32,000 bases of DNA from contig JASBSB010000001.1 in the NCBI GenBank assembly GCA_030149205.1, positions 390,001-422,000 on the forward strand. Direction: 5' to 3'. Below the pieces are notes generated by a model that was not told the origin of the DNA, did not search any database, and saw only the letters and a list, made by a program, of their open reading frames with translations. The DNA comes from Candidatus Heimdallarchaeota archaeon (lineage in GTDB: Archaea > Asgardarchaeota > Heimdallarchaeia > Heimdallarchaeales > Kariarchaeaceae). This document shows positions 8,128-28,931 of the stretch, in pieces; the first letter of the stretch is position 1, and each line of letters begins with the position of its first letter. The translations under genes were made by a program, and so were the position numbers.

Positions 8128-8217
8128 TGGACTGAGCGGGATTTTCGAGATTTATCTTTTCGAACCCGCGGCTGCTAGTATGCGAAACTAGCACTCTACC
8201 AACTGAGTTATCAGCCC
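8128..8217 (-). tRNA. tRNA-Ala (anticodon CGC) with a 17-nt intron at 59/60; CCA not encoded
   Basis: Full cloverleaf: acceptor GGGCTGA/TCAGTCC with G3:U70 and A73 (Ala identity), D stem ACTC/GAGT, anticodon stem CTAGT/ACTAG with loop TTCGCAT, T stem GCGGG/CCCGC. Mature length is 73 nt after intron removal. Confidence 0.96.
8142..8158 (-). other. BHB tRNA intron in the T-loop (59/60)
   Basis: GCGGG-TTCG-AAA-AGA-TAAA-TCT-CGAA-AAT-CCCGC forms a 4-bp central helix TTCG/CGAA with two 3-nt bulges. Canonical cleavage restores the T-loop TTCGAAT. Confidence 0.93.
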
Positions 8218-8361
8218 ATTAATCTACCTCTTTTGTGTCTATTTTGAACATTCCCATAACAATCGAAATTCTCAGTGAATTGAGATAAATTATTTTCAAA
8301 ATCAATGATTCATTATTTAGAGATTGGTGAGATTTAAAATCAATGAAACACGGTGTGGAGT

Positions 8362-9408
8362 ATGGTAACTCAAGCTGAGATGAACCTAATCACAGGAGTT
8401 TCATTCATTGTTATAGGTGCGTTATTCAAACTTAAATCAAGGAACAATTTATTCAATAAAGGAGATTCTTGGGCATATTTCGCAATTTTTCATGGGATTG
8501 ATGAAGCTTTTGATTCTTTGAAAAATTATTCTATTTTTTCATCTGTTAAACTCTGGTTTGAAAAGGGCGAAATAATTTTCTTTGCTCTTTCAGCAATTTT
8601 TCTAATAATTGGAACATTGATAGTATTCGACATAATCCCACCAAAGCATGAGCTTGAGCTCGGGTTGATATTTCAAAGTCCATTTGTCTTGTTGGTCTTA
8701 ATTGCTAATGAAACAACAATAGACGTAATTGAAACAGCAAGAGTTTCAATAGGTGGATTTGAGTTTAGTTTAATTGCTCTTAGTTTTGGAGTGATCCCGA
8801 CAATTCCTTTGATAATTGCTCTGCTAATAAATTTCCTCCAAACTAGACGCAAATTCAAAACTATTGGGAACACAAAAATAATTGGATATGTGATAGTTTC
8901 GATGATGCTTACAGCTTATGCGTTTTCTGAACTCTATGCAAGTACCAATAATAATTTTCTGCTTTTAGAAATATTTGCAATTGCAGTAGTTCTTCTTTTC
9001 CCTGTTGAGTATAATCTTTCTGGAGAGAGTGGGGTACAACTATTTGTCCTTTATCACAAAAGTGGAATTCCTGTAACTTCCATACACTTTAATACGAGTA
9101 TAGACAGAGATACTGTTAATCTTGTGACCTCATTTTTGTCAGCAATAAAAACCTTAGTTGAAAATGAACTTGAGCTAGGGGAATTACAAGATATTCAGAC
9201 TGATAAGGGAACTTTGGTGTTAGTTCAATTAGGGGAGTTCATTTTAGCAACTCTCACATCAAGTTCTCCGAAAAAAATCAAAGAAAAATTGTTTCAAATC
9301 TCTGACACTCTTTCTTTAACTCTCAAAGACATTAGACCTGAAATAGTTGATTCAGCCAAAATTGATCAAATTGATACAATGATAATAAAACAACTAGAAC
9401 TACAATGA
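8362..9408 (+). CDS. Seven-TM membrane protein fused to a C-terminal longin/roadblock-like domain
   Basis: About seven hydrophobic segments lie in the first ~220 aa. The region from ~9031 (VQLFVLYHKSGIPV...LVTSFLSAIKTL...LGELQDI...FILA) matches the typical Asgard longin pattern. ATG 8362 is preferred over the track's GTG 8353 because GGTG/GGAG lies just upstream. Confidence 0.72.
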   Translation: MVTQAEMNLITGVSFIVIGALFKLKSRNNLFNKGDSWAYFAIFHGIDEAFDSLKNYSIFSSVKLWFEKGEIIFFALSAIFLIIGTLIVFDIIPPKHELELGLIFQSPFVLLVLIANETTIDVIETARVSIGGFEFSLIALSFGVIPTIPLIIALLINFLQTRRKFKTIGNTKIIGYVIVSMMLTAYAFSELYASTNNNFLLLEIFAIAVVLLFPVEYNLSGESGVQLFVLYHKSGIPVTSIHFNTSIDRDTVNLVTSFLSAIKTLVENELELGELQDIQTDKGTLVLVQLGEFILATLTSSSPKKIKEKLFQISDTLSLTLKDIRPEIVDSAKIDQIDTMIIKQLELQ

Positions 9409-9474
9409 AGAGAACCAAACTTTACATTTGATTTATTTTTTATCGAATTGAATTATTTTCATGAGATGTTAGAT

Positions 9475-10107
9475 CTATCTTGCACCTTCTGCAGCATCAA
9501 AGAGAATTGAAGCAGCTAAAATTAGTCTACGATCCAATTTTGCATCTGGTGATACTGTCATTGTATAATTGTCTCTAAGTTTCGCAAGTCGGTTGTATTC
9601 CCCTATCTTGTTTCCGTTAATATCAAATATCTCAAAATGCAGTCTCATAAATATTTGAAGTATTGGTCCAATAATTGGTATTACGGATAGGATTCCGAAT
9701 TTTCGAACAATGGTCTTGAACATAGATTTAGCGCTTGCCCATCCAATAACTTCACCTGATTCTGTCTGAAACTCCCATCTTTCTCTTAACAAACTATGCC
9801 AAAACCTTCTTTTGAGGACTCCAACCATTTCATTATTTTCTAAATCATGAACCCTAAATCTAGCCCAGGCATCTAAGAAGGTCTCATCATAAAGAATAAT
9901 TATTGGATGAGATTTCGTATCTGGATCATCAAAGATAACTACATCCTTATGGAAAAAGAATCTAGCTCTTTTTGCCCAGAATAGTTTTTGATCAGTAGCT
10001 CTATCCTTGATATCATATGCTTCTTGAAACGTAAATAACCTCCTTATACTTTGGGTTACTAACAGTTCATTGAATACTAGTTTTTCTTCTGTTGTTTTTT
10101 CCAACAT
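9475..10107 (-). CDS. LURP-one/phospholipid-scramblase (tubby C-terminal-like) family protein
   Basis: Repeated beta-hairpin pattern (YDIKD...LFWAK; FRVHD...VGVLKRRF; FEIFD..GNKIGEY) and a terminal hydrophobic helix DRRLILAASILFD. Confidence 0.72.
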   Translation of the reverse strand: MLEKTTEEKLVFNELLVTQSIRRLFTFQEAYDIKDRATDQKLFWAKRARFFFHKDVVIFDDPDTKSHPIIILYDETFLDAWARFRVHDLENNEMVGVLKRRFWHSLLRERWEFQTESGEVIGWASAKSMFKTIVRKFGILSVIPIIGPILQIFMRLHFEIFDINGNKIGEYNRLAKLRDNYTMTVSPDAKLDRRLILAASILFDAAEGAR

Positions 10108-10245
10108 TAATCAAATTTCTATTTTTTCAGTTCTTAAATTTTTCCACCACCAAAAATTAGGATGGGTGCTTTCTCAATTTAATTTTACGTTACTTTTTGG
10201 TATATTATAATAAGATATTAATTCTAAGGAGTTTAGATATAATTA

Positions 10246-11091
10246 ATGCCTGAGGGCCCAGAAGTTGAAATTGTTAAAAGAGGGTTGTTAGCAATAAAAA
10301 ACCAGCAAATTTCACAAATAATTGTATCAAACCACCCGAAATACAACCTTATTCAAGATAGACTTTCTCACATCTCAAGGGTTTTAGATATACATAGAAT
10401 TGGAAAATTTTTGATTTGGGAATTTGATTCAAACGTTTTTGCAATTAACCATCTTGGAATGACCGGTATTTGGTCTATTCAGAATACAAAAGAAGAGAGT
10501 AATTTACAAGAACTTGTTTTAAAGAAACATTTCAAACTAGGCTTTCACTGTGATTCTGGGGATTTTTTCATGTTTGAGGATATTCGAACATTTGGTAGAT
10601 TTGAAATTTATAATGATGACCCTAGAAAATTTCATCCAACGTTAGTAAATATGGGACCTGATATCCTTGATAAAAATTTTAGCAATGTTGAATTTTCAAA
10701 ACGTTTGAAAGGAAAGGGGTCAAGGGGGAGATCCGCTGAAATTGGAAATGCTTTGCTCAACCAATCAATAATTGCAGGATGTGGAAATATTTACAAATCA
10801 GAATCATTATTTTTAAGTAACATAGATCCAAGAAGAAAGGTAAACACATTATCTGACACAGAGATGAACAAATTAGGAGAATCACTTCAAATTGTTGCAA
10901 AGAAAGCCTTAGAAGCAGGGGGATCTACAATACGTGATTTTGTTACAGTAGATGGGTATGATGGATTAATGCAGAATGAGTTTAAAATTTACGGGAAAGA
11001 AAATGAGCCTTGCCCAAACTGCCAATCAACTATTATAAAGATTAAGCAAGGAGGGAGATCAACATATTTATGCGCAAAATGTCAAAAATAA
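10246..11091 (+). CDS. mutM: Formamidopyrimidine-DNA glycosylase/AP lyase (Fpg)
   Basis: N-terminal catalytic MPEGPEV, HLGMTG, FEDIRTFG, H2TH motif LLNQSIIAGCGNIYKSESLF, GGSTIRDF loop, and C4 zinc finger CPNC...GGRSTYLCAKCQ. Confidence 0.93.
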   Translation: MPEGPEVEIVKRGLLAIKNQQISQIIVSNHPKYNLIQDRLSHISRVLDIHRIGKFLIWEFDSNVFAINHLGMTGIWSIQNTKEESNLQELVLKKHFKLGFHCDSGDFFMFEDIRTFGRFEIYNDDPRKFHPTLVNMGPDILDKNFSNVEFSKRLKGKGSRGRSAEIGNALLNQSIIAGCGNIYKSESLFLSNIDPRRKVNTLSDTEMNKLGESLQIVAKKALEAGGSTIRDFVTVDGYDGLMQNEFKIYGKENEPCPNCQSTIIKIKQGGRSTYLCAKCQK

Positions 11092-11152
11092 ATCATTTAA
11101 AATCAAGATTAATAAAAATTTATATATTCAAGGTCTCCTCGAAGAATTTTAG

Positions 11153-11587
11153 ATGGTTTTAGATAGTCGATCCATTTATCCCATTTTTTTGGGTATTTCT
11201 GTAATTGCCATTATTAACCATTGGCCACTTTTATTTTACCCATTAACTCTTCTTGTTTTTATCCCCATGCTAGTCAATGTATTTACAATGAAGTCTAATT
11301 ACAGGTACAACCTTAAAATTATAATTTATATTATACTGACTGATGGTGCTTTAATGCTTTATCTAACTTTGACACTCCCGGCATTCGGTCTGTTTTTTGT
11401 TGTAATACCTGTATTCTATTGGATAGTGTTAATAATATTTTATTACACGATTAAGAGGGAGGTTAAGATAATTTCAAGACCCATATTTACTATGAATGAT
11501 GATGATGCTTACAGAGCAAGAAAAGCGATGATAACCAGACATCCTGAGGACATTATAAACATCCAAAAATACAAAAAATTCAGCTAA
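11153..11587 (+). CDS. Hypothetical membrane protein (about 3-4 TM)
   Basis: 144-aa ORF with hydrophobic segments. It overlaps the convergent ORF by 4 nt. Confidence 0.65.
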   Translation: MVLDSRSIYPIFLGISVIAIINHWPLLFYPLTLLVFIPMLVNVFTMKSNYRYNLKIIIYIILTDGALMLYLTLTLPAFGLFFVVIPVFYWIVLIIFYYTIKREVKIISRPIFTMNDDDAYRARKAMITRHPEDIINIQKYKKFS

Positions 11588-12912
11588 AACCACGGGTGCA
11601 AAATCTGTTGGTTTAACTCATTTACGTAACGAACAGCATATGGGATAAATTGGAGCATCCGCAATTCTATTGACCATATTTTACCCTTCTCTTTTATATA
11701 AAATATATTTTTTTGATCTGGATAAGTGTTGACCAATTTATGTATCCATCCAATAAAACTAAAACTTCCATCTGAATACCTCGGTTGATTTATCAGTCTA
11801 CCCTGAGCATCTCTTTCTTCTAAGATTAATTCATCATCAAGTTCTTTTGAAATTTGTATTAGGATTGCATCGAGCCTATTTATAACTGCAAGGTCCCTAT
11901 ACAATAGAGAATATTGGAACAGTGAATTGAGGCTGTTTAAGCTATTCTCTACCCATTTTTTATATCCGTATCTTGGTCCATCAGGTTTGTTGTTGCTGCG
12001 TTTTAAAATGGTTCCAAAATGTTTAATCTGGTAATTAATGAATCCGTCCAATGTCATTTCTTCTTGTGTGATTCCTCCAAATCTATATCTAGCCCAGGGG
12101 GTTAGATTGTATGCAGTCTTTTTCGGGTTGAAGGTGAAATTTGGAACATTGAAATATGTCAAATAGATCTCTAAGTTCTTGTATAGTTCATATGCAAATT
12201 TTAATTCAATTCCCAAAACCCGTCGAAAGATTCGGGTGTCACTTAATAAATGAACAACAACATCATCGAAAGGTGAATTAGTCACACGTTTGAGCTCTTC
12301 AGTTTGATCATATCGTAAACACACATAGCCTACAAACATGAAAATCCAAATTGACATTTTACTTTCGATTTGTTTATCATTTATAGATTTGAGATAGTTG
12401 GTGAAAATTTGTTTGTAGTCAATTGTATCCCTCAACAAGAGGTATTCACTTTCTAGTGCTGTGACTTTAGCTACCATTTTTTCAAATTGAAAGGTTGGTA
12501 CTCTTACATCACCTCGACCATCTGCTTGTAAGGCTAAAGAAAGTTCATCTTCACCCATGTTAATTTCTTTGATCATTTTGTTTAAAAACCATAATTGACC
12601 GTTGAATCCCTCGGAAATTACATCTTTGACAAAATCATTAAAACTAATCAATGGGAAAGGTATTGAAAAAAAAGAACCAAATAAGACTGGTAGAGAATCT
12701 ATTAGTGAATTAATGGTTGGATAAAACTTGGTCTTCGTTCGTCTAATATTAAGCTTAACTTTTTGTCTTTTCTCCCGGATTTTTTTATTCTTCTGAATCT
12801 CCCTCAATTCATCCTCTCCAATCTCATCAATGGCATTAGACTCAGGTTTCAAATCATTATCATTTGACTCTTCTGAACTTGAGTTAAAGTTTAGATTGGG
12901 AGGATTAGACAA
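11584..12912 (-). CDS. Hypothetical protein (442 aa, acidic then basic N-terminus), probably co-transcribed with the upstream Hsp70-like gene
   Basis: Long ORF. The TTG start is preceded by AGGTG at SD spacing and lies 10 nt from the upstream stop. No family was recognised. Confidence 0.75.
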   Translation of the reverse strand: MSNPPNLNFNSSSEESNDNDLKPESNAIDEIGEDELREIQKNKKIREKRQKVKLNIRRTKTKFYPTINSLIDSLPVLFGSFFSIPFPLISFNDFVKDVISEGFNGQLWFLNKMIKEINMGEDELSLALQADGRGDVRVPTFQFEKMVAKVTALESEYLLLRDTIDYKQIFTNYLKSINDKQIESKMSIWIFMFVGYVCLRYDQTEELKRVTNSPFDDVVVHLLSDTRIFRRVLGIELKFAYELYKNLEIYLTYFNVPNFTFNPKKTAYNLTPWARYRFGGITQEEMTLDGFINYQIKHFGTILKRSNNKPDGPRYGYKKWVENSLNSLNSLFQYSLLYRDLAVINRLDAILIQISKELDDELILEERDAQGRLINQPRYSDGSFSFIGWIHKLVNTYPDQKNIFYIKEKGKIWSIELRMLQFIPYAVRYVNELNQQILHPWF

Positions 12913-12922
12913 GTTTATGCAC

Positions 12923-15715
12923 CTAAATTATAGGGAAAAGTTCAATGTAATCATTCTGAGATGGACTAACATCCTTTTCTGAGACTGTAATACAAAGCCA
13001 ACCGTTATCACGAACACCTATTCTAATTACCGGGTTCTCTAAATCTTTGGTGTCTACAATTAAAGGAAAGTCAAGGACTGGTTCGAAATCAAAAAACTCT
13101 GTTGTTAACAACTCAGTCTTTAATATATTTATATCATTTTCTTGAATTTTTGAGTAGTTTAACCTCTTGATCCATAAGTCCAAAATTAAGCTATGAAACT
13201 CAAAATTCTTTTTAACCTCAATTTTCTTTACTTCATTGTAAATCCCTTCTTTCTCGTCAATTAACGGAAGAAGACTTAGCATTCCCGAAGATGCTGTGTT
13301 TGTTTGAATGGAATCTCCAGGATTTGAGATTATATTTTGGCCATTCCCAAAGATTCCAGCTCCAAGAGAAAGGTGGTTCTTGTTATCCTCAACAATTAAT
13401 TTCACTTTTTTATCTAATAAATTGTAAATATATTCTTGAAACAATGGCCAGTTTGCGCCTCCTCCAGAGAGAATAACTTGATTTAGCTTTTCGAGTTCAA
13501 AATTTTCTTCAGAAATTATCGCAAGTAAATCTCGCATTAAGAATTGTAATGCTATAAAAACTGAATTCTCTTCATCAATGATCACTTCTGATTTGTCTTT
13601 GGGTTCCCCAAGGATTTTAATTTTTAAAGGGCTTTCTGTGTATTTTTCTTCAGTTAGTTCAAATTCTTTAGATAAGGTCTGTTTAATTTCTGAAAACACC
13701 TTGTAGTCGCAGTATGATCTATTTATGTTTAATTTTGAAAGATGTGTCGAAATTTCATTGTCGTAAGAATTCATTCCTTTTCCTAATGAAAGAGACACGG
13801 AACTTATTGGAGCCTCTTCTACCCCTTCTAACAAACTATCAATTTTTCTCTTTCTACTTTTATTGCTAGGAATATCAACCAATGAACCAGTAATATGAGT
13901 GTCTCCGAGGTCTAACACTATTGATTTGCCTTCCTCCTTGTATGCACGAAAGGATGCCAAAGTTGAAGCTAAACTAGCTTCCAATCCATAGATTTGATTA
14001 AACCCAAATTCAGTGAGGAAGTTATGAAACCATCGTCTGTATTCTACAGTGGTATGTTTCTCAAAGGTAAAAGTTGCAACTTGAACTGAATATTTTAACT
14101 CGGCTAAGATCCTTTTGATCACCTTTCTAAGAAAATCCTCAGTAGCCTTTCTTGGAGTTATTGTTAAATTTCTTACTCTAATACTATCTAAGGAGTCTTC
14201 TTGTATTAGTTGTTTTAAATTAAACATAGTTAGGTCACTGTTAACCACTTCAGAATTTTCCATTGAAATTTCGTCTCCAACTAAAAATTGGTCAGGGGTT
14301 ATGTAGGATACTACAGTGGGTTGAACAATATGTAAAAGTTCATGACCACAATCAGAGGGGACAATGGAAATTTTGGTTTCTGTATTCCCAAAATCTATCC
14401 CCAATGTGCAACACCCATGGGGTGTTCTTCCTTGGAGAGGTTCACTTTCCTTTATATCAAATACGTTAAAAGACCTACCGTGATGTAGATCTGTTAATAG
14501 TTTTAGTGTTTCTAGGATTCGTTTTTGAAGTCCAGATAGTGAACTTATCAGAGTCTGGAGTGAGTCATCAATTAAATGCGTATGTTGATTTAGTGGAATC
14601 AAAAACATCGCCAGGGTATCCATATCAACAGAATAATTTTGCCCCTTGCTTTTGATTGTTATATACAGACCATCCTCATCCATTAAGAACGAGGATACTG
14701 AATTTGCATGTGCAACAATTTCTGCAAGAAGGATTCCATTTGTGGAATAAACTGGGATATGAAGCTTTCCTGTGAAATTTGAATATCTAACTCTTTCATC
14801 ATAAATTGCTAGATTTAGCTCCCTATCAACTAAATTAAACCTACCACGATCTACAAACTCCATATCAGGAATTCGATCAGGCCTTGTATATACTATTTGA
14901 GTGACATTTATTTCAACAAACTTTGATTGACGGTCAGCTTCTGATAAAAATTCAAACTCTCCGGTCTTTTTATCCTCTTTTGTTATTGCCAAATTTAGAA
15001 TCCAAGAGACACCATCCCACCCATTTTCTCCTAGGTATTCACTTAAAAGTTCGAAGAAGTAACGACTCTCTTTTGATTCTGGTCTCCAATCCTCTTTGTT
15101 GAGAATTTTCATTAATTCACTGACAAAGGGGAAAGGGTATTCTAAGACACTCTTCCAGAGAGTATTAAAATCTTTCTTACTCAGTAATTCAGCAATTGTT
15201 GGTTTTGAGACTCCAACATATCTTAATCTTTTTTTCTTAAATAATTTTTCTGACAGTTTACCTGCCCTTTCGAATATCAAACTTCCCAGTGATGGGTCAA
15301 GAGTCTGTAAATAATGTTCAAGCTCTACAAGATCAGGATCAATCTCCAGGAGTAAATCAATTTCATCAAGCATGACTAATGTCGCTGACAACGTTGATCG
15401 TTTGATCTTATCCCAGTTTGCTTCTATCGTTTCCTTTACAAACGATTTGAGACTAGGGAGAGGGTGACTTATCCATAGGTCCAATACCTGTTCTCTTTTA
15501 AAAGATGGCAAAAATCTCTGTACGTGATCTAAAGCCAGCTTTCGCACTTCATCAGACTCATGATGATCAATTATTTCAAATATTTGTACTAAAGTTGTCT
15601 CATTTTTGGATCTCAGCCAATCTTTAAAGAGGTCAGAGAATGCGATTAATTCCTCTTCAGTTGGGTTCTCGATATATCTGGAGTTTAATAGTTCATAGGT
15701 TTCTGTTTGTTCTAT
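12923..15715 (-). CDS. Large multidomain protein: helical/HEAT-like N-terminus, degenerate WD40-like segment, atypical Hsp70/actin-fold ATPase domain
   Basis: Hsp70-like motifs LGIDFGNTETK, LEASLA (EPTAAA position), IVLDLGDT, VILSGGGANWP and LSLGAG. The frame stays open 56 codons upstream of the track's GTG (15547) to ATA 15715, which sits 7 nt behind GAGAGGAG. The start codon is uncertain. Confidence 0.75.
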   Translation of the reverse strand: MEQTETYELLNSRYIENPTEEELIAFSDLFKDWLRSKNETTLVQIFEIIDHHESDEVRKLALDHVQRFLPSFKREQVLDLWISHPLPSLKSFVKETIEANWDKIKRSTLSATLVMLDEIDLLLEIDPDLVELEHYLQTLDPSLGSLIFERAGKLSEKLFKKKRLRYVGVSKPTIAELLSKKDFNTLWKSVLEYPFPFVSELMKILNKEDWRPESKESRYFFELLSEYLGENGWDGVSWILNLAITKEDKKTGEFEFLSEADRQSKFVEINVTQIVYTRPDRIPDMEFVDRGRFNLVDRELNLAIYDERVRYSNFTGKLHIPVYSTNGILLAEIVAHANSVSSFLMDEDGLYITIKSKGQNYSVDMDTLAMFLIPLNQHTHLIDDSLQTLISSLSGLQKRILETLKLLTDLHHGRSFNVFDIKESEPLQGRTPHGCCTLGIDFGNTETKISIVPSDCGHELLHIVQPTVVSYITPDQFLVGDEISMENSEVVNSDLTMFNLKQLIQEDSLDSIRVRNLTITPRKATEDFLRKVIKRILAELKYSVQVATFTFEKHTTVEYRRWFHNFLTEFGFNQIYGLEASLASTLASFRAYKEEGKSIVLDLGDTHITGSLVDIPSNKSRKRKIDSLLEGVEEAPISSVSLSLGKGMNSYDNEISTHLSKLNINRSYCDYKVFSEIKQTLSKEFELTEEKYTESPLKIKILGEPKDKSEVIIDEENSVFIALQFLMRDLLAIISEENFELEKLNQVILSGGGANWPLFQEYIYNLLDKKVKLIVEDNKNHLSLGAGIFGNGQNIISNPGDSIQTNTASSGMLSLLPLIDEKEGIYNEVKKIEVKKNFEFHSLILDLWIKRLNYSKIQENDINILKTELLTTEFFDFEPVLDFPLIVDTKDLENPVIRIGVRDNGWLCITVSEKDVSPSQNDYIELFPII

Positions 15716-15834
15716 CTTGCATCTCCTCTCTTATTTTGAATAAATCAACAAAGACTCTTCTATCTAAATTTTAATTTGAGTTTAGAAAATAAAAACCCTT
15801 TTATGAACTGCAATACATTAGAGTACATCTAATA

Positions 15835-16632
15835 ATGATCAATATTGGAACTACTGGATGGTCATACAATTTTTGGCGAAAGGACTTTTACCCTCGAGGA
15901 ACTAAGGATTTATTGGAATACTATAGTAAGAACTCAAGCATCACAGAGGTGAATTCAACTTTTTATCAAATTCCTTCTGAAAAAACGATTGAAAGATGGA
16001 AAAAAGTAACCCCTGATAAATTTAAATTTACGATTAAAATGTTAAAAGATTTAACTCACAGTAGGGCTGAAGAGGTTAATATCTCTTTACTTAGGAATTT
16101 TTGCCAACCTTTATTAAAATTAGATGAAAAATTAGACGGGATTCTTATTCAATTTCCCTATTCCTTCGATTTTAATGATCAAAATGGGAAATATCTTAAT
16201 GAACTAATAATGAGTATTGAGGACTTAATTCCCACAAATTTGTTTATTGAGATTCGTAATCCTACATGGACTAAGAACCTAATTTCAACTCAAAATTCAT
16301 CGAAGAACTTATACTATGTTTTGACTTCAAAACTTCAGTACCTTAATTTAAAGCCAGAACAAGATATTAATTATGTGAGAATCCTTGGATCTCATAAGGA
16401 ATTTCCTGATAGATTACTTGGAACAAAACGGATAATTAGAGATGATAAATTATTAGATTTTGCCAAGAATCTAATTCTTACCTTGAAAAACAAAGAGACA
16501 AGGATTTATGTAAACAACAGATTCTCAGGCAATGGGGCGATAGATGCAAGAACATTGCATAAAATCTTTTCTAACATGGGATTGGAAGTCTCTGGGTTTG
16601 CCCCTGAGAAGACACTTGAAGATTTTTTTTAG
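15835..16632 (+). CDS. DUF72 family protein (YecE/YunF-like TIM barrel) with a terminal PIP-like motif
   Basis: IGTTGWSYxxW, EVNSTFYQIP, FKFTIK, ILIQFP, EIRNPTW, YVRILG and IYVNN, ending EKTLEDFF. Confidence 0.88.
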   Translation: MINIGTTGWSYNFWRKDFYPRGTKDLLEYYSKNSSITEVNSTFYQIPSEKTIERWKKVTPDKFKFTIKMLKDLTHSRAEEVNISLLRNFCQPLLKLDEKLDGILIQFPYSFDFNDQNGKYLNELIMSIEDLIPTNLFIEIRNPTWTKNLISTQNSSKNLYYVLTSKLQYLNLKPEQDINYVRILGSHKEFPDRLLGTKRIIRDDKLLDFAKNLILTLKNKETRIYVNNRFSGNGAIDARTLHKIFSNMGLEVSGFAPEKTLEDFF

Positions 16633-16673
16633 ATTGCTAAATTCATCTGAAAATTAAAGAATGGTCAGTTTTC

Positions 16674-19303: not shown

Positions 19304-19304
19304 T

Positions 19305-21742: not shown

Positions 21743-21828
21743 AAATAGGATAAATTATTTAATATAATCAATTGATACTAATTTTATTTTATAGATTTAA
21801 TTTGTAACTTCTGCTTTGGTCAATTAAT

Positions 21829-22995
21829 TTAGAATTTTCTCTTCTTGATTACTAAGACTAACATACCTACTCCAAACGCTGCCAAAATTGACAGAATTGA
21901 AAGTGGTGATCTTGCTACCGTAGTGGTATAGTCAATGTAAGTTCCAGCTAAAGTGAACTCTAGACCTTGTAAGCTTGCTCCTACACCTGAGAAGTAAGCC
22001 ACATTTGAGGATTGACCTGCATCTGAATTAACTAAAGATGAGGTTTGGAATCCTTGAGGATCTAGGGTTAATATTCCAAAGTAATTTGAACCAGTTCCTT
22101 TGCTAAATTTGAAATGGGATGTAAATGAAGTTCCAGTCATTGCATGTACTCCTAGATCATCGACATACATATTGAAACCGGGAGCTGAAGTTGTTCCATT
22201 CAAAAATGTAGCATTAAAGGCTAAAGTTCCAGAAGTGTTAAAGGCACCTCCAACTTCGATTCCTTTTGCATTTTGAATATCACTTGGATTTACAGTGTCA
22301 CCAGCTCCAATAGAAGTCTTACCGTATCCAAAAGTTAAGTTTTGATAAGGAGCATTAAAATTAGTTGCAGCAAAATCCAACGGATACTTTGCAGATGAAT
22401 TATATGTGTCAACTGCTTTCAAATTTGTTGGAATCCCAATTAAGTTTGGAGCAAATTCAAAACCAGTAATTGATGTCCTCACACGCACATAGATGGTATC
22501 ATATGCCAGAGTGTAGGATCCAGTTCCATTAAAGGCCACATAAAGGACGCTAATAAAGCTATCCCCTTGACTTAAAGGTACTGTAACACCACTTGAGCCA
22601 TATTCTGAACCAGAATTGACATACTTGATCAGGTTATTTGTAATAACAAAAATTTGACCAGCTGTGTCCTTTCCTTTTACCTTTACGACACCAGAGTAAT
22701 CGAATTTAACTACACCAATGGTGACATCTTGAGTGGCAATAATGTCATAAGTTGTCAATCCATTTACTTTTATTGGGGCTGGGTGATAAGCTCCTTCCGT
22801 AACGGAAGAATTTCCAAAAAAGTAAATCGAAACACCAAAACTTCTTGTGGTGTTCACAAACGAATTGGGACGTAAATCAACAGGGCTTGTCTTTGCCTGT
22901 TCAGCCACTGTCAAATTAACAGTTGCTGACAAAGAAATTGAGACTATTAACGTCACAATCATTAACCAGGTTATACTTTTCTTGCGGATGTTCAT
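21829..22995 (-). CDS. Secreted/cell-surface beta-rich protein with N-terminal signal peptide and C-terminal membrane anchor
   Basis: MNIRKK plus a hydrophobic leader, a Ser/Thr/Gly/Asn-rich body with several N-x-S/T sequons, and a terminal TTTVARSP, TM helix and KKRKF. Confidence 0.8.
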   Translation of the reverse strand: MNIRKKSITWLMIVTLIVSISLSATVNLTVAEQAKTSPVDLRPNSFVNTTRSFGVSIYFFGNSSVTEGAYHPAPIKVNGLTTYDIIATQDVTIGVVKFDYSGVVKVKGKDTAGQIFVITNNLIKYVNSGSEYGSSGVTVPLSQGDSFISVLYVAFNGTGSYTLAYDTIYVRVRTSITGFEFAPNLIGIPTNLKAVDTYNSSAKYPLDFAATNFNAPYQNLTFGYGKTSIGAGDTVNPSDIQNAKGIEVGGAFNTSGTLAFNATFLNGTTSAPGFNMYVDDLGVHAMTGTSFTSHFKFSKGTGSNYFGILTLDPQGFQTSSLVNSDAGQSSNVAYFSGVGASLQGLEFTLAGTYIDYTTTVARSPLSILSILAAFGVGMLVLVIKKRKF

Positions 22996-23123
22996 GTTAT
23001 CCTAATTCGATTGCTCATCTAGAAGTATTTATACCTATGGCAATTTAATGAATAATTGTGAACTTTATTTTAGGAAATTCCGTAAGTTGGTGCTAGTTTA
23101 GTATAAAAAATTACGATATTTAC

Positions 23124-23642
23124 TCAAAGTCGTGGGAAAATTTTTACCTCGTTATTAACGAATGAAAAAGTATGAAGGTTTGAGAAATCATACTTTCCCT
23201 CATAAGTTGATCGGTGAGATTCGTAACGATCATTGGTTATAATGAAAAGTTTCTCTGGAATAGCGTGTTCAATTACTGAGTTGTCATCATCTCTTGATGA
23301 GTCAGCAAGAATTACCCATCCAATATTGATAAGTCTTTGCAATTCATCTTTGTCATCTATATTGTGGATCAGTGCTTCACTGATAATAATCACTGGAAAA
23401 TATTCATTCTTTTTTAGATAGATACGTATTTTCTTTATCAGATGTACTTTTGGTGACCCAAAATAATATGCTACATTGTTACCATCCACCACAATTTTTC
23501 TCATTTTGGGTTTATGAATTTGGTTGATCTTAATTTGATTGAGTTTTCCTGCTTCCATTAACTCAGGATGATATTTGGACAAATGATAGTTCATTTCATG
23601 GTTGTCAACAGATCGACCACAGAAATCACATTTGTATTTCAT
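23124..23642 (-). CDS. C2H2 zinc finger plus Zc3h12a/Regnase-like NYN (PIN) ribonuclease
   Basis: YKCDFCG...HLSKYHP finger; IVVDGNNVA, RDDDNSVIEHA and IITNDRY carry the acidic catalytic residues. Confidence 0.82.
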   Translation of the reverse strand: MKYKCDFCGRSVDNHEMNYHLSKYHPELMEAGKLNQIKINQIHKPKMRKIVVDGNNVAYYFGSPKVHLIKKIRIYLKKNEYFPVIIISEALIHNIDDKDELQRLINIGWVILADSSRDDDNSVIEHAIPEKLFIITNDRYESHRSTYEGKYDFSNLHTFSFVNNEVKIFPRL

Positions 23643-23720
23643 TGAAATATTTCTCTAAAAATACTTAATGTAATTTGTGTTTTCTTCCCTTTGAATTGAT
23701 AAATACCTTCTTAATGATGA

Positions 23721-24740
23721 TCAAGTTCCTGATCCTTTGAAAGCACTTTTTAATTTGTCTTGAAGAGCTTTTTTCATATCTTCCGCAGACATTTCCTCTA
23801 GGTTTATCTCTTCCTTTGCCTCTTGTTTGTTGGCTTCTTTACCTTTGGTTTTAACACTCTTTAGCCCTTTTAAAGCACTCTGTATAGAATCTTGGGTTAT
23901 TCCACCACCACCAGAAGAAATTGGGGATGGTTTTTTAATCTCATCCTCAGGAACGCTTTGAAGACCTTTTAATGCACTTTGAATCGAATCTTGAGTGATC
24001 CCACCAGAATTTACTGAAGCAGAGGGAGCACCTTCAGTCGATTTGTTCATTTCATCCTGTGGAACTGATTTTAATGCACCCAATGCAGACTGAAGTTCAT
24101 TGTTATTTGGACTACCACTTAGATTTGGCATTGCAGGACTGGCGTTTGGTGCCACTCCTCCTAGGTTTGGAGCACCAGGGCTGGAAGAAGGAGTTCCTCC
24201 GCCAAGGTTAGGGGTATTTGAACCAGATATAGGTGCCCCTCCACTGAGGTTAGGGGGTGATACTGGGTTGGAAGGAGGTGAGCTCGCTAGATTAGGTGCA
24301 ATTGGACTATTTACCGGTGCGCCGCTACTAGCACCAGGAGATACGGGGTTAGATACTGCTGCACTACTACCGAGGTTGGTGCTCGTGGGAATTGAAGGTT
24401 GGCTTACCTGCATTTGGGGAGTTGCAACTGTTTGTTGTATGTGTTTTGTATTCACAGTATTTGATGAGGGAGTTGGAATAAACTCGTCCTTAAAGATATT
24501 CAGGGAACTTAAATTTAAAGATGTTTGAGGTAACCCCGCTAATTCTTCAACAAGATCATCAAACTCCTCTTCTACAAAGGTGAGTTTACTGTTTATACGT
24601 TTCAATTTAGGGGTTGTGTCTGCAATAAAATCTGCTATCTTACCTCCCAATGTATTAATCTTTAGTGCAACTTTCTTCAGTTGCTTTGTATCCTGAGAAG
24701 TTTCTAATATCGTGTCAATGTAATTCTCTAGGTCACTCAT
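23721..24740 (-). CDS. Helical N-terminus, Pro/Gly/Ser-rich linker and three tandem (L/I)QSALxxL(K/Q)SV repeats; candidate WH2-like actin regulator
   Basis: 339-aa ORF with a low-complexity centre and internal repeats that are directly visible. The function is inferred. Confidence 0.75.
   Translation of the reverse strand: MSDLENYIDTILETSQDTKQLKKVALKINTLGGKIADFIADTTPKLKRINSKLTFVEEEFDDLVEELAGLPQTSLNLSSLNIFKDEFIPTPSSNTVNTKHIQQTVATPQMQVSQPSIPTSTNLGSSAAVSNPVSPGASSGAPVNSPIAPNLASSPPSNPVSPPNLSGGAPISGSNTPNLGGGTPSSSPGAPNLGGVAPNASPAMPNLSGSPNNNELQSALGALKSVPQDEMNKSTEGAPSASVNSGGITQDSIQSALKGLQSVPEDEIKKPSPISSGGGGITQDSIQSALKGLKSVKTKGKEANKQEAKEEINLEEMSAEDMKKALQDKLKSAFKGSGT
23853..24107 (-). repeat. Three intragenic peptide repeats: NNNELQSALGALKSV, ITQDSIQSALKGLQSV, ITQDSIQSALKGLKSV
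   Basis: Repeats lie at 24063..24107, 23952..23999 and 23853..23900, spaced 37 and 33 aa. Repeats 2 and 3 are 15/16 identical in protein but differ at many synonymous positions. Confidence 0.92.
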
Positions 24741-24884
24741 TCTATAGCAAATTTATTTGGACTTCGTTCTATAAAAAAGTACATACATTGATACCTTCAA
24801 AGATGAAAAACATTTTTAATTTTCACTTAGAACTAAAATCTTCTACAAATGCATTTAATAAGAGTATTCTGTAGTGTGATTAAC

Positions 24885-25982
24885 ATGATTGATATTCCAA
24901 AAACTGAAATTAAAAGAAGATGGACAGCAGTCCAAAAGGCAATGGATGACTTTGACGCACTCATCCTACCATTGGGTGTGAACTTTCAATACTTTTTTGG
25001 AAAACCCGGTATGCCTTCTGAAAGAATTATACTTGGGATAATCCCCAAATCAAAAGACCCCTTCATATTGGCGCCAAGCTTTGAAATATCAAACTTTGAA
25101 GCTGCAACGCAAATTGATGATATTGTAGGATGGGAAGAAACGGAATCTCCATACAAAATTTTTGAGCAGGAGCTCAATGATAGGGAGATAGGGACAAACA
25201 TAGGAGTTGATCCGAAACTCTGGATTGTTGAATATGAAAGATTGTCAAATACAAGCAAAAGACACAATTTCACAAGTGCTGGGAACCTCATAGACAGTAT
25301 TCGAGAGGTTAAATCTAGTTGGGAGATTGAACAATTGTCATTAGCTTCCCAATATTCATCAGAAGGTATCTTAACCGCATTTGATAGATTCTATGATGGA
25401 ATGATGGAAATAGAGGCAGTTCCCATACTTGCTGAGGAGCTTGGTAATTTATCAGGCAATCCTCTTAGCTTTGCCTTAGTACAATTCGGTGAAAACTCCG
25501 CCCTACCACATGGGTCGCCATCTCGAAAAAAATTGGGGTCAAATGATGTTGTTTTGTTAGATGTGGGTACCTCAGTAAATGGTTATCAAGGCGATATCAC
25601 GATTACTCTCCACATGGGAAAGCCCAATCAAAAATTTTTGGAAGTATATGAAACTGTGTTTGAGGCAAATAGAGCCGCATTTTCAAAAGAACTAGAGGGT
25701 ATAAGCGGAGGTTCTCTTGATGAAGTTGCAAGAAAGCATATTGTCGACGCAGGATATGGCAAATACTTTACACATAGACTCGGGCATGGGATAGGGCTTG
25801 AAGTTCATGAAAAACCTTATCTTGTGGGAACGAACAGCAGTCCGATGAAGATAAATCAAACACACACAATCGAACCAGGGATCTATTTACCTGGAGAATT
25901 TGGGGTGAGGATTGAAGATGATGTTGTCCTCCAAGAAAAAGGTGCAAGAAGACTTTACAATACATCAAGACACAATTGGTAG
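24885..25982 (+). CDS. Xaa-Pro peptidase (M24B, PepQ/prolidase-like)
   Basis: NSALPHG, LLDVG, YQGDITIT, FTHRLGHGIGLEVHE and TIEPGIY...GVRIEDDV. The likely start is ATG 24885. Confidence 0.93.
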   Translation: MIDIPKTEIKRRWTAVQKAMDDFDALILPLGVNFQYFFGKPGMPSERIILGIIPKSKDPFILAPSFEISNFEAATQIDDIVGWEETESPYKIFEQELNDREIGTNIGVDPKLWIVEYERLSNTSKRHNFTSAGNLIDSIREVKSSWEIEQLSLASQYSSEGILTAFDRFYDGMMEIEAVPILAEELGNLSGNPLSFALVQFGENSALPHGSPSRKKLGSNDVVLLDVGTSVNGYQGDITITLHMGKPNQKFLEVYETVFEANRAAFSKELEGISGGSLDEVARKHIVDAGYGKYFTHRLGHGIGLEVHEKPYLVGTNSSPMKINQTHTIEPGIYLPGEFGVRIEDDVVLQEKGARRLYNTSRHNW

Positions 25983-27128
25983 TTAAACAGAGAGTAATAC
26001 ATCAAAACTAATTAGTTGAATAATCACAATACATACTCCTTCGAAAAGATCTAGTTTTAAATCATCCTTCATCAACATGTTCACAAATAAAAGGATAGCA
26101 CCTGACATAACTATCTGAACAATGGCAAAGGTATCAAAATAGATATGACCACCCATAGTGTAAACAATAATAGTTACTAATCCAATCATAAATAGAATAA
26201 CAGCAGAAATTGATGAAAGTACACTTCCGAATATCAGTTCTGGATCATCACGGGCATTGTATGCAACTGCCCATTCGGGTAATGACCCTAACAGACCAAT
26301 AGCTAAAGCTATAATACTAAGACTGAGATGAAAACCACTTACCTCAGCTTCATGAATTAACATTTCTGCACCCGAAGCTAATAGTTCACCAGCAAAAACA
26401 ATTCCGACAATGCCGAAAATCAAAAACTTAGCTATGTTTTGATTTGAAAAAGCGGGATGGCTCTTAACTAATTTTTTTTGTTCCTCAGACAGTGGGGGGT
26501 TGATCTCTTTATCAGTTGCGACGAAAACAATATAAAATACGTAAATTAATACTGTACCAACTGAAAACAACACTGGTATCTCCACACCCTGATGTAGGAT
26601 CCCTAATCTGATATTCTCTGCAAAATTGAACACAAAGAGAAAAATAGAAGTAATGAATGCGATCATCATTAATTCTGATTCATACCTGAGAGTTGTTAGG
26701 GGAACTTTAATTGATCCTTTTTTAAGAGTCTTAATAATAATTACTATTCCAAATAGAAGAGTATTAGCCCCAGTCACAACCAAAACAGAAAGTATGGCTA
26801 ATTCCGTGTTTCCACCAATAATCAACAGCAATGCGAGAACTAATTCGGGTAGATTTGCCATAATTGAGCCTATCACACCTGCTGCATATGTACCCACCCC
26901 TATTCTTTTTGCAAGTAGGGTTAAACCTTCCACAGCCCATTCACTTGGTTTAATAATTGCCCAGAGAGCAATCCCAAAACCTGTAATTGCGATTATGATT
27001 GGACGAATACCTAAATGTCCAGGGGTAAGCCTTACAATAAAATAGGCAACAATTGCAATTGCAGCAACAAATAATTCAATTTTTCCCAGATGAAGGGAGG
27101 TTGGATATTCACTATCATCCATACTCAA
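25983..27128 (-). CDS. CaCA-family cation exchanger (Na+/Ca2+ or Ca2+/H+)
   Basis: About 10 TM segments, with alpha-1 repeat GSIMANLPEL and alpha-2 repeat GLLGSLPEW. The start could be ATG 27122. Confidence 0.88.
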   Translation of the reverse strand: MSMDDSEYPTSLHLGKIELFVAAIAIVAYFIVRLTPGHLGIRPIIIAITGFGIALWAIIKPSEWAVEGLTLLAKRIGVGTYAAGVIGSIMANLPELVLALLLIIGGNTELAILSVLVVTGANTLLFGIVIIIKTLKKGSIKVPLTTLRYESELMMIAFITSIFLFVFNFAENIRLGILHQGVEIPVLFSVGTVLIYVFYIVFVATDKEINPPLSEEQKKLVKSHPAFSNQNIAKFLIFGIVGIVFAGELLASGAEMLIHEAEVSGFHLSLSIIALAIGLLGSLPEWAVAYNARDDPELIFGSVLSSISAVILFMIGLVTIIVYTMGGHIYFDTFAIVQIVMSGAILLFVNMLMKDDLKLDLFEGVCIVIIQLISFDVLLSV

Positions 27129-27223
27129 GCAACTTTATTGTATTCAAAGAGTTTTCGAGAGAATATTAAATGAAAGCAACAAATAATATATAGGTGAAAG
27201 GAAGAAGTAGTTAGAAATTAAAG

Positions 27224-28831
27224 ATGAGATACCAAAGAATTCAGGTTGTATTAGTATTTTTCACGGTACTGGCACTCATGTTTTATGATGAATCCTTGAT
27301 ACGAATAATTTATGATATTACTAATGTTTCATTGATTTTTTATGTAATATGTGGGAATTATTTCCTTATTGAGCGCTTGACCAGACAAAGATTGCAACCC
27401 GTGCTCATTTCCCAAATATTAATGATTCTTCTAGGTCAACTTTCGCTTGGATTTTTGACGGTCACAGGTGTTCAACTCTTCTACAAAATATCTCCTTTTC
27501 TTACGACAGTTATTGAGCTTGTGGTATTGTTTTTTATAACCTATGAAATAGTCATTCAGTTTACAAAAAGAAATCTGATAAATAAGTCCAGCTTACTATT
27601 TTTCAACAAACCACACTATAGCCTTAAGAAAATGCACCTCACCATCTCTGGCCTGTTCCTCTTTATTTTATTGTTCTATGTAGGTAGCTCAGTCAATGAT
27701 ATTAGGGAAATTCTTGTGCTAATGGGAATCTTTGTGGCTGTAAACTTACTCTCTTATAGAATATTATTCTCTTATTTTTGGTCAAATCAAGATGGAGTTG
27801 CTATCCCGAAAATTTTCACAGGAAATTCAACTGAGAGTTTCCTGGCTGTAATTAAATCAGCTGGGTTACACTGTTTAGAAAATTCCTCAATGGTAGACTC
27901 TCTACAATGTCTAGACAAGTTGACCATCAAAATTAAAGAACAACTCAACATTCCAAAAAATTACCAAGAAAACACTCAAGAATTCACCTACAAGGAACTC
28001 TTCCAGATGTTTGAATCAGCAAAGAACTTTGAATTGACAGCAGACACATTTTGGAACCTTTTATCAGAAAAGCAACTATTCATTCTGTTAAATTATCAAA
28101 GAGCTCAATCCCTAAGAATTATTTCTGAACTAAATTACCTATTAAGGTTGTGGGGAGAAAAAAATATGGTTGGAGTCAGTTTATTAAAATCATTGTTAAT
28201 ATACAGATTACATAAATGGAAGCTCTATGGGAGGTTACCACCATATCTACATACCTTACTTATTGAATCAATTCTAACATTATCTTTGCTTAAAGACTCA
28301 TCTTCGGAGTTAACTAACATGATTGAATATGAAATTCAACACAGAAAGCAAGGTTTTAGGAGGCTAATTCTATTGTCAAAAGGACCTTATTCGAGATATA
28401 ATCAACTTATTGAACCAATTTATTTTAATTATCTTTGCTTTTATGGAGAAAAAGGAGCACGATACCTAAACCATTTATGCACTCAAGACACACCAAATAC
28501 GAGTATAATAGGCTCAAAAGCCCACCAAAGGTTAGATAACTATTTTGATAATATGGTCAAGATATACATCGGTTCTGAAAGCAGGAAAATATTGGGAGAA
28601 GCACCAAATTTCCCATTAGTAGAATTTGAAGGTTATATTTTTAACATAGAAGAACCAATTACACCTGAGAAAATTAGATCCTTCAGAGATGATTTCACTC
28701 ACCTTATTATAAAAGAAAAAAAGCATATAGCTTCAAAACCAAATTGGGTAAAGGATTTAAATGACAAATCAAAGATAATGACAAAGGAACAAAAAAAACT
28801 TTACTTAGAAAAATGGTTGAAAACAGAATAA
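27224..28831 (+). CDS. Hypothetical membrane protein (about 5-6 N-terminal TM, large helical C-terminal domain)
   Basis: 535-aa ORF with a hydrophobic first ~190 aa. No family was recognised. Confidence 0.75.
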   Translation: MRYQRIQVVLVFFTVLALMFYDESLIRIIYDITNVSLIFYVICGNYFLIERLTRQRLQPVLISQILMILLGQLSLGFLTVTGVQLFYKISPFLTTVIELVVLFFITYEIVIQFTKRNLINKSSLLFFNKPHYSLKKMHLTISGLFLFILLFYVGSSVNDIREILVLMGIFVAVNLLSYRILFSYFWSNQDGVAIPKIFTGNSTESFLAVIKSAGLHCLENSSMVDSLQCLDKLTIKIKEQLNIPKNYQENTQEFTYKELFQMFESAKNFELTADTFWNLLSEKQLFILLNYQRAQSLRIISELNYLLRLWGEKNMVGVSLLKSLLIYRLHKWKLYGRLPPYLHTLLIESILTLSLLKDSSSELTNMIEYEIQHRKQGFRRLILLSKGPYSRYNQLIEPIYFNYLCFYGEKGARYLNHLCTQDTPNTSIIGSKAHQRLDNYFDNMVKIYIGSESRKILGEAPNFPLVEFEGYIFNIEEPITPEKIRSFRDDFTHLIIKEKKHIASKPNWVKDLNDKSKIMTKEQKKLYLEKWLKTE

Positions 28832-28834
28832 TAA

Positions 28835-28931
28835 TGGACGGTTGGGGAATTTCATCTGGTTTTAACCAAATTTTGAACCCCAGGCCTCTTCCACGCCAAG
28901 GAAGCGATCTACCGGTCTGATCTAACCGCCC
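28835..28931 (-). tRNA. tRNA-Ala (anticodon GGC) with a 23-nt intron at 59/60; CCA not encoded
   Basis: Acceptor GGGCGGT/ACCGTCC with G3:U70 and A73, D stem GATC/GATC, anticodon stem CTTCC/GGAAG with loop TTGGCGT, T stem TGGGG/CCCCA. Mature length is 74 nt. Confidence 0.96.
28849..28871 (-). other. BHB tRNA intron in the T-loop (59/60)
   Basis: TGGGG-TTCA-AAA-TTTGGT-TAAA-ACCAGA-TGAA-ATT-CCCCA forms a 4-bp central helix TTCA/TGAA with two 3-nt bulges. Splicing restores TTCAAAT. Confidence 0.93.

Follow-up and report, generated by a model that had tools for sequence, protein, structure and literature searches.

Two tRNA-Ala genes encoded by a Heimdallarchaeial MAG, both located in the 32,000-nt stretch of DNA that was analysed (hereafter, the window), are interrupted in the T-loop between nucleotides 59 and 60. 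These are very probably ordinary, functional genes whose introns are spliced by protein enzymes. Their introns are two of 24 in the T-loops of this genome's tRNA genes, all unrelated to one another, which would have been gained after this lineage split from its genus mates.

The two genes were read by hand, each on the minus strand. The gene for tRNA-Ala(CGC) spans window positions 8128..8217 (90 nt including the intron) and consists of a 5' exon (8159-8217), a 17-nt intron at site 59/60 (8142..8158; AAGATAAATCTCGAAAA) and a 3' exon (8128-8141). The gene for tRNA-Ala(GGC) spans positions 28835..28931 (97 nt including the intron), with its 5' exon at 28872-28931, a 23-nt intron at site 59/60 (28849..28871; ATTTGGTTAAAACCAGATGAAAT) and its 3' exon at 28835-28848. 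Each intron forms a strict hBHBh' motif, in which two 3-nt bulges on opposed strands are separated by a 4-bp helix and flanked by helices on both sides. In both genes the 5-bp T-stem serves as the outer helix, and the central helix pairs nucleotides 54-57 with the intron, as TTCG with CGAA in Ala(CGC) and as TTCA with TGAA in Ala(GGC). The 5' bulge is AAA in each, composed of A58, A59 and the first base of the intron, and the 3' bulges are aaT in Ala(CGC) and atT in Ala(GGC), where T is T60. A TAAA loop closes the 3-bp inner helix of Ala(CGC) (AGA-TAAA-TCT) as well as the 6-7-bp inner hairpin of Ala(GGC) (TTTGGT-TAAA-ACCAGA). Both genes lack a 37/38 intron. A preliminary description of the window had noted the same site, lengths, AAA bulge and TAAA cap, and the same lack of an intron at 37/38, and our reading confirms it.

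Strict motifs are so rare in the genome, at ∼2×10−4 of position/length pairs (182,534 candidates), that the two Ala motifs are not chance occurrences. In the minimum-energy fold of Ala(CGC), the T-stem and the 3' bulge are present and the 4-bp central helix is extended by a fifth pair, and the AU-rich 4-bp central helix of Ala(GGC) is missing from the nearest-neighbour folding prediction. Misses and extensions of this kind are probably usual for such motifs, though they do not amount to proof of them.

Neither unspliced gene is reported in a search of the window by ARAGORN or by Rfam at the gathering threshold, although Ala(CGC) gives a weak RF00005 match of 20.7 bits. Such invisibility to standard finders is what might be expected if the inserts were marks of pseudogenes or assembly artefacts, but we consider this scarcely credible. 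Each gene is the only one recovered for its anticodon in the genome census, and splicing in silico yields perfect cloverleaves that ARAGORN calls as Ala(cgc) and Ala(ggc), with G3:U70 kept in both and T-loops of TTCGAAT and TTCAAAT, respectively. The locus sequence is contained in a 373-kb contig with a depth of 74 and zero differences in a DNA run of the probable source sample, and the same precise architecture recurs in 22 other genes. In two other DNA runs, the matching contigs are only short pieces from other organisms. The lack of tRNA calls in the window by ARAGORN and Rfam is a failure of detection rather than an absence of genes.

In the precursor RNA, a bulge-helix-bulge motif would be built from the T-stem, the pairing of nucleotides 54-57 with the YGAA at the 3' end of the intron, and the small inner hairpin. 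An (alpha-beta)2 endonuclease would then cut within both 3-nt bulges, after nucleotide 59 and before nucleotide 60, and ligation of the exons by RtcB would allow the 7-nt T-loop TTCRAAT to form. Position 59/60 in the T-loop is exactly equivalent to 37/38 in the anticodon loop, as both lie between bases 6 and 7 of a 7-nt loop that a 5-bp stem closes. The conserved nucleotides T54-T55-C56-R57-A58 set the 3' end of the intron (YGAA plus 2 nt) and give a 5' bulge of the form A-A-N.

The genome encodes an RtcB ligase (555 bits) and two EndA paralogues (PF01974 at 77.6 and 50.3 bits). The alpha subunit is most similar to that of A. pernix (3P1Z_B, E = 2.6×10−31), carries a Y/H/K motif, and aligns gap-free, with K50 and K52 at the positions of K44 and R46 in the A. 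pernix specificity loop (for residue roles, see PMC3241643). In the beta-like paralogue, Ser takes the place of the catalytic His of M. jannaschii; this paralogue is closest to the EndA proteins of M. kandleri and M. jannaschii, not to the crenarchaeal beta subunit. The preliminary description had proposed that EndA be typed, and the two paralogues point to a predicted two-subunit (alpha-beta)2 enzyme with a broad-specificity loop; (alpha-beta)2 EndA carrying the L1 loop has been described from Asgard genomes (PMC5829648). As in A. pernix (PDB 3P1Z; PMC3241643, PMC5829648), there are two paralogues, the alpha subunit is gap-free through the Crenarchaea-specific loop with Lys at K44, and the catalytic Tyr, His and Lys are found in alpha, with His missing from the second paralogue. 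Unlike the A. pernix enzyme, the EndA of this genome is known from sequence alone, such that its assembly and substrate range are predictions.

It had also been proposed that tRNA introns be catalogued throughout the genome, including that of Ala(UGC). Our own catalogue comprises 45 tRNA genes, and 59/60 introns are widespread among them: 24 genes representing 15 amino-acid types carry one of the same build, including 22 non-Ala tRNAs from 14 other amino-acid types. These introns are 17-30 nt long and 70% A+T. Nucleotides 54-57 are TTCR in every one of the 24 genes, and the intron segment that pairs with them is YGAA in 22, the exceptions being Pro(UGG) and Leu(UAA), where it is AGAA. The strict motif is likewise present in 22 of the 24; Pro(UGG) and Leu(UAA), which have a G57-A mismatch in the central helix, lie beyond the strict scan and were found by a relaxed one. 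A scan of the genome for paired strict motifs uncovered no further real genes. Half of the genes with a 59/60 intron (12/24) have a 37/38 intron in addition, 14 more have a 37/38 intron only, and seven are intron-free, giving ∼1.1 introns per tRNA gene with only these two positions found in use. The third alanine gene, Ala(UGC) (gene Ala(TGC), C8:124991-125082), is among those split only at 37/38, by an 18-nt intron, and its T-loop is intact. Since all three Ala genes bear introns, Ala decoding would be expected to rely on the splicing endonuclease, as had been suggested, and the same would hold for the 38 of 45 tRNA genes that are interrupted.

The likeness of the two Ala introns is due to constraint rather than common descent. 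All 59/60 introns share one build, which is dictated by the conserved T-loop nucleotides together with the geometry that splicing requires of the motif, and the occurrence of the same split in 24 of the 45 genes means that the trait is unconnected with alanine. The TAAA cap shared by the two Ala introns appears to be a weak coincidence; the remaining 22 T-loop introns have other loops. One of two origins put forward in the preliminary description was an ancestral Ala-specific T-loop intron. Taken to mean that the introns of both isoacceptors descend from a single Ala tRNA gene, this origin is refuted by the census and by the orthologues and is in our judgement very improbable. It would account for a site common to two of the three Ala genes and for the identical caps, and isoacceptors throughout the genome do tend toward the same 59/60 state (29 of 43 pairs versus 21 expected, p = 0.02), so that within an isoacceptor family the state may in part have been inherited or spread by co-conversion. 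However, Ala(UGC) has no T-loop intron, the same design is found in 22 tRNAs for other amino acids, and the two Ala introns are alike only in the parts that the motif enforces.

Ala genes from related genomes also argue against such an ancestry: of those recovered, every one from the genus, and nearly every one from the family and order, is unsplit at 59/60. Among genus mates, Ala(GGC) is intron-free in two genomes (G001 and G003) and has only a 37/38 intron in a third (G002). This gene is likewise without a 59/60 intron in five further family members and almost throughout the order, the sole exception in the order being G015, which has a different 59/60 intron of ∼35 nt. Ala(CGC) is intron-free in G001, G006, G009, G010 and G011, and the one exception among same-genus and same-family Ala genes is the Ala(CGC) of the family member G008, whose 59/60 intron is different and 31 nt long. 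Every Ala orthologue obtained from G001, G002, G003, G005, G006, G009, G010 and G011 is without a 59/60 intron, and one same-genus genome yielded all three Ala genes, each uninterrupted at this position. Because Ala(UGC) is split only at 37/38 and the Ala genes recovered from relatives are uninterrupted at 59/60, the Ala introns are probably recent gains in a lineage-specific burst, where gain is favored over loss by parsimony over draft genomes.

The other origin put forward, a genome-wide wave of T-loop intron gain, agrees well with these data. The relatives are draft genomes that are 63-95% complete, and the gene-by-gene comparison was made with G001, in which 17 orthologues of this genome's 59/60-intron genes are without an intron at that position. 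A pattern that demanded GG at positions 52-53 matches 26 times here, versus 9, 10 and 4 times in the genus mates and 0-9 times elsewhere; RF00005 matches number 22 here versus 37, 35 and 24 in the genus mates. Genus mates have only a few T-loop introns each, partly in other tRNAs, in comparison with the 24 found here. This contrast within the genus fits repeated recent gain and loss.

It could also be proposed that the introns were copied, together with flanking sequence, from donor tRNA genes within the genome, in the manner of the transposed intron families of Thermoproteales. The involvement of one lineage, one position and many genes would suit this proposal. So would the T-stems, since G52-G53 is found in all 24 that bear an intron versus A52 in 8 of the 21 others (Fisher p = 0.0009), and since three of the five T-stem pairs of Ala(GGC) differ from those of genus-mate orthologues, with the remaining gene ∼92% identical. 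However, the G52 rule, which was drawn from this genome, could equally reflect a requirement for stability of the outer helix. Moreover, the varied lengths of the introns and their inner sequences speak against copying. The most similar pair of inner sequences has an identity of 0.73 over 10-11 nt, the same value as the 95th percentile for shuffled sequences, and no near-identical introns were found in different tRNA genes of this genome. Judged by their sequences, the 59/60 introns are mutually unrelated and no more alike than shuffled controls. Families shared between different tRNAs hold 1.5% of Asgard intervening sequences, versus 28% in Thermoproteales (bioRxiv 10.64898/2026.10.13.758758). 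We regard copying between tRNA genes as improbable, and favor the gain of unrelated introns.

As for why such introns persist, Randau and Soll have hypothesized for archaeal tRNA introns at large that they act as a shield against integration (reviewed in PMC4090602). Applied here, as the preliminary description proposed, T-loop introns would be kept because they break the attB sequence, lying in the T-arm and 3' end of the gene, at which viral and plasmid integrases act. An insert at 59/60 indeed splits the T-arm, and integrated elements are found at none of the 24 genes with a T-loop intron, but they are also found at none of the 21 genes without one. The genome has only three PF00589 matches, each either on a tRNA-free contig or separated from any tRNA gene by more than 112 kb, and no tyrosine integrase occurs within 100 kb of the 45 tRNA genes. 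No partial copies of tRNA-Ala were found in the genome. Evidence of mobile elements is rare near all tRNA genes in an Asgard census and is unassociated with intron gains (bioRxiv 10.64898/2026.10.13.758758). Furthermore, the burst affected position 37/38 in addition to 59/60. Protection from integration draws no support from this genome and is, in our view, a quite improbable reason for these introns.

Non-canonical archaeal BHB tRNA introns at 59/60 were reportedly noted by Marck and Grosjean in 2003 and by Sugahara in 2008. Introns at this site include ARMAN-2 examples, and one has been cleaved in vitro (PMC3239211). The introns of the present genome resemble these known archaeal cases in their site, 3-4-3 bulge-helix-bulge, T-stem outer helix and short hairpin form, and its predicted endonuclease of broad specificity matches those of other genomes with 59/60 introns. 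Unlike Thermoproteales and ARMAN-2, where non-canonical introns occupy many positions and are often relaxed, a single non-canonical site is used here in more than half of the genes, and nearly always with a strict motif. Introns are known to be abundant in Asgard tRNA genes, where they have been gained repeatedly and form many strict motifs in the T-arm (PMC11291895; bioRxiv 10.64898/2026.10.13.758758). The present genome is like those published cases in that most of its tRNA genes bear introns, strict T-arm introns are common, gains appear lineage-specific, the introns are unrelated, and EndA is of the predicted (alpha-beta)2 type. However, the published studies focus on the Atabeyarchaeia and the Jordiarchaeia (Freyr), where ∼2.2 inserts per gene are spread over many positions, some of them in the D-arm. 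Several Heimdallarchaeia in those studies have fewer than one per gene, compared with ∼1.1 in the present Heimdallarchaeial genome.

Both T-loop introns and the heavy interruption of Asgard tRNA genes were thus already known, and the genome described here is a dense local case. It provides an instance, from the Heimdallarchaeia, of an Asgard trait described before and, as found, matters little beyond this. A modest extra is the contrast within the genus between 24 T-loop introns and the handful in genus mates, and comparison with closed genomes from the genus could help to date the gains and to seek their mechanism. A more specific reading, which we consider doubtful, is that a recent, position-specific burst in one species gave unrelated 59/60 introns to about half of the tRNA genes, always with G52:C62, and 37/38 introns to many others, through a structure-aimed insertion process that is still active. 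Such insertion might, for example, involve the endonuclease and ligase working in reverse on stem-loops, with the product then copied back into DNA. If this were true, the genus would be a natural system in which to observe tRNA intron gain in the act.

Several candidate genes proved to be false on reading the sequence, namely ARAGORN calls at C2:550767 and C4:656008, a weak RF00005 match at C4:56640, and minus-strand scan matches on C4 at offsets 642689 and 124734. ARAGORN also gives the wrong label to Ala(UGC), Gln(UUG), Lys(UUU), Arg(UCG) and Pro(CGG). The catalogue presented here corrects the annotation of a genome from which standard tools recover only about half of the tRNA genes.

Both alanine tRNA genes in the window lie on the minus strand and are interrupted in the T-loop, between nucleotides 59 and 60 (59/60). 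The tRNA-Ala(CGC) gene (8128-8217) has, on the minus-strand reading, a 59-nt 5′ exon and a 14-nt 3′ exon separated by a 17-nt insert (8142-8158, minus), and the tRNA-Ala(GGC) gene (28835-28931) has exons of 60 and 14 nt separated by a 23-nt insert (28849-28871, minus). Both carry G3:U70 and normal D and anticodon arms, and neither has an intron at the anticodon-loop site 37/38. In each, nucleotides 54-57 (TTCG or TTCA) come directly after the 5′ strand of a 5-bp T-stem and match perfectly the four intron bases preceding the last two (CGAA or TGAA). A58 and A59 together with the first base of the intron make up one 3-nt bulge, the last two intron bases and T60 make up the other, and the remaining intron forms a small hairpin (AGA-TAAA-TCT or TTTGGT-TAAA-ACCAGA). 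As judged from sequence, both inserts conform to the strict bulge-helix-bulge (BHB) motif hBHBh′, with cleavage predicted between the second and third bases of either bulge and with the same geometry as at 37/38. The preliminary description of these genes, including intron lengths, AAA bulge, TAAA cap and lack of a 37/38 intron, was correct in every detail.

The in silico spliced products are recognized by ARAGORN as Ala(cgc) and Ala(ggc), and the unspliced genes are detected by neither ARAGORN nor Rfam. Minimum-energy folds of the two genes yield a cloverleaf whose T-arm is extended (z = -4.4 and -2.8) and in which the AU-rich 4-bp helix is not cleanly resolved. A 535-amino-acid open reading frame (ORF) (27224-28831, plus strand) that lacks a Pfam match is convergent with the tRNA-Ala(GGC) gene and ends 4 nt from its 3′ end. 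A Pfam match is absent for seven of the ten window ORFs scanned, among them an 874-amino-acid ORF at 12923-15547 (minus).

Standard detection in this genome (3.31 Mb in 12 contigs, about 35% G+C, 93.5% complete) recovers 22 tRNA genes above cut-off with the Rfam tRNA model and 23 with ARAGORN. The window corresponds to C4:390001-422000 of the assembly, whose FEN1 protein finds its closest counterparts among named genomes in “Candidatus Heimdallarchaeota” MAGs (61-72% identity), which bears out the Asgard affiliation assumed in the preliminary description. We catalogued tRNA introns by position and isotype, enumerating all strict BHB candidates genome-wide (182,534), splicing each in silico and submitting the products to ARAGORN; in a second round the central helix was relaxed, and odd calls were curated by eye. 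The resulting total is 45 tRNA genes. In 24 of them an intron of 17-30 nt occupies 59/60: Ala GGC and CGC; Arg UCU; Asn; Asp; Gln CUG and UUG; Glu CUC and UUC; Gly GCC, CCC and UCC; Leu CAG, GAG, UAG, CAA and UAA; one CAU tRNA; Pro UGG; Ser GCU, GGA and CGA; Thr GGU; and Trp. Half of these (12 of 24) also have a 37/38 intron, which is the sole intron in 14 further genes; seven genes have none, and only these two sites were found in use across the genome. The tRNA-Arg(CCG) gene was not found by any scan of the 93.5% complete genome, and could fall within the absent 6% or carry an interruption of a kind that these scans overlook. ARAGORN mislabels several intron-bearing genes, calling Lys(UUU) a ‘Stop’ tRNA, Arg(UCG) SeC and Pro(CGG) Phe(aaa), and it calls Gln(UUG) Lys(ttt) once the 59/60 intron is removed in silico. 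Two of its ‘tRNAs’, with 69- and 138-nt introns, are false.

The third alanine isoacceptor, tRNA-Ala(UGC), lies outside the window (contig C8:124991-125082, plus strand), where ARAGORN wrongly reports Ser(tga). Its 18-nt intron sits at 37/38 and its T-loop is intact, with no 59/60 intron, so the window genes represent two of the three alanine genes and two of the 24 genes with a 59/60 intron genome-wide. The proposal of an Ala-specific T-loop intron is thus refuted, as Ala(UGC) lacks one and 22 non-alanine genes share the same build. The T-stem of Ala(UGC) is GCGAG/CTCGC (with A52), and its acceptor stem is identical to that of Ala(CGC).

On the 5′ side, the common build of the 24 genes is a T-stem ending in GG, then TTCR, then a bulge in which A58 and N59 are joined by the first base of the intron (mostly AAa); on the 3′ side, YGAA follows the inner hairpin and precedes a bulge a[at]T. 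The AAA bulge amounts to the conserved T-loop A58-A59 joined to an A-rich intron start, and T54-T55-C56-R57 dictates the YGAA. Only the TAAA cap sets the two Ala introns apart; because the introns contain 70% A+T and different loops occur in the other 22, we regard it as coincidental. Across the 24 introns, the variable inner parts resemble one another no more closely than shuffled sequences do, the best pair (0.73) falling at the 95th percentile of shuffles. Sites 37/38 and 59/60 are structural twins, both separating the sixth from the seventh base of a 7-nt loop closed by a 5-bp stem. AGAA replaces CGAA in Pro UGG (C2:480740-480769) and Leu UAA (C4:455919-455948), giving a G57-A mismatch; these are the only T-loop introns with a central-helix mismatch, and such relaxed motifs would need a broad-specificity endonuclease.

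All 24 T-stems of 59/60-intron genes have G52-G53 and none has A52, versus A52:U62 in 8 of the 21 others (Fisher p = 0.0009, post hoc), a pattern that may arise because the outer helix has to be strong or because these genes share a T-arm type. Isoacceptors of one amino acid share their 59/60 state beyond chance (p = 0.02), an effect due to Leu (5/5), Gly (3/3) and Val (0/3).

To place the introns among relatives, each Ala gene was compared by BLAST with 40 related genomes and the loci were then read. Alignments break off at query nucleotide 60, because the relatives' Ala loci mostly lack the 59/60 intron. Ala(GGC) has no intron in two genus mates (G001, G003) and four members of the family (G005, G006, G009, G010); in genus mate G002 and family member G008 its sole intron is at 37/38. 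Across the order, almost every genome lacks a 59/60 intron in this gene, the exception being G015 alone, with a different intron of ~35 nt. Ala(CGC) is intron-free in G006, G009, G010 and G011, and in G008 has a different 59/60 intron of 31 nt. In two neighbouring families (f2 and f4; loci L097-L117) the Ala(GGC) genes encode the 3′ CCA, which is not encoded in the family studied here.

The contrast extends beyond alanine. We fetched and read all 39 RF00005 (tRNA model) matches in G001, whose three Ala genes lack any intron. Seventeen orthologues of the 59/60-intron genes have no 59/60 intron there, and many of these also lack the 37/38 intron present in the genome under study. Together with the 59/60 introns in 24 of the 45 genes, these orthologues support the alternative reading, a genome-wide gain of T-loop introns. 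A search for the design pattern gave 26 matches versus 9, 10 and 4 in the genus mates and 0-9 elsewhere (controls, 0-5), and standard-detectable tRNAs number 22 versus 37, 35 and 24. The genus mates have 59/60 introns of their own, partly in other tRNAs: His in G001; His, Arg UCG and Glu CUC in G003 (L160, L163, L169 and L175 for these two genomes); and Leu CAG, Leu UAA, Arg CCG, Gln UUG, Gln CUG and CAU in G002 (L161, L164, L174, L176, L180 and L182). Unlike in genus mates, His and Arg UCG lack the 59/60 intron in the genome under study. Where a genus mate shares the position with this genome (five tRNAs for G002), intron length and sequence differ. Parsimony suggests that the 59/60 trait is gained and lost quickly, that this genome carries the heaviest load, and that its two Ala introns are recent gains.

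The three Ala isoacceptors of G001 (L132, L138, L143) are almost the same except in the anticodon arm, a pattern suggestive of concerted evolution; those of the genome under study have diverged from one another in acceptor, D-arm and T-arm. G013, of another family in the order, has only 13 tRNA-model matches (genome 85% complete), fewer than here, and may be even more heavily interrupted.

Protection of tRNA genes from integration by introns was proposed by Randau and Söll (reviewed in PMC4090602), and the preliminary description extended this idea to T-loop introns. Three tyrosine-recombinase matches occur in the genome, two on tRNA-free contigs and one separated by 112 kb from the closest tRNA. 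The genome showed neither partial copies of the two Ala genes, which would indicate an attL/attR pair, nor any integrated element at a tRNA gene, with or without a T-loop intron. In an Asgard census, evidence of mobile elements was rare near tRNA genes and unlinked to intron gains (bioRxiv 10.64898/2026.10.13.758758).

This kind of feature is already known. T-loop BHB introns have long been recognized in archaea (PMC3241643); site 59/60 is documented, with one such intron cleaved in vitro (PMC3239211); and Asgard archaea with most tRNA genes interrupted have been published (PMC11291895). The Asgard census further describes repeated lineage-specific gains, introns that are unrelated in sequence, strict motifs, above all in the T-arm, and a widespread (αβ)2 splicing endonuclease (EndA) (bioRxiv 10.64898/2026.10.13.758758). 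What is added here is local: a Heimdallarchaeial genome in which only 37/38 and 59/60 were found in use, and a sharp contrast in 59/60 introns with its genus mates.

The genome encodes two EndA paralogues. The first has the A. pernix catalytic α subunit as its closest match (3P1Z_B, E 2.6e-31); their alignment runs gap-free through the Crenarchaea-specific loop, placing K50 and K52 opposite K44 and R46 (residue roles from PMC3241643), and Tyr, His and Lys of the catalytic site are retained. The second, closest to the M. kandleri and M. jannaschii enzymes, has Ser in place of the catalytic His and is therefore read as a structural β subunit. On these alignments the pair is assigned to the (αβ)2 type with an L1 loop, the same type as that reported in Asgard archaea (PMC5829648). 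The ligase RtcB is also encoded. With introns in 38 of 45 tRNA genes, including all three for alanine, these tRNAs would depend on the splicing pathway, and alanine decoding would require the endonuclease, as had been anticipated.
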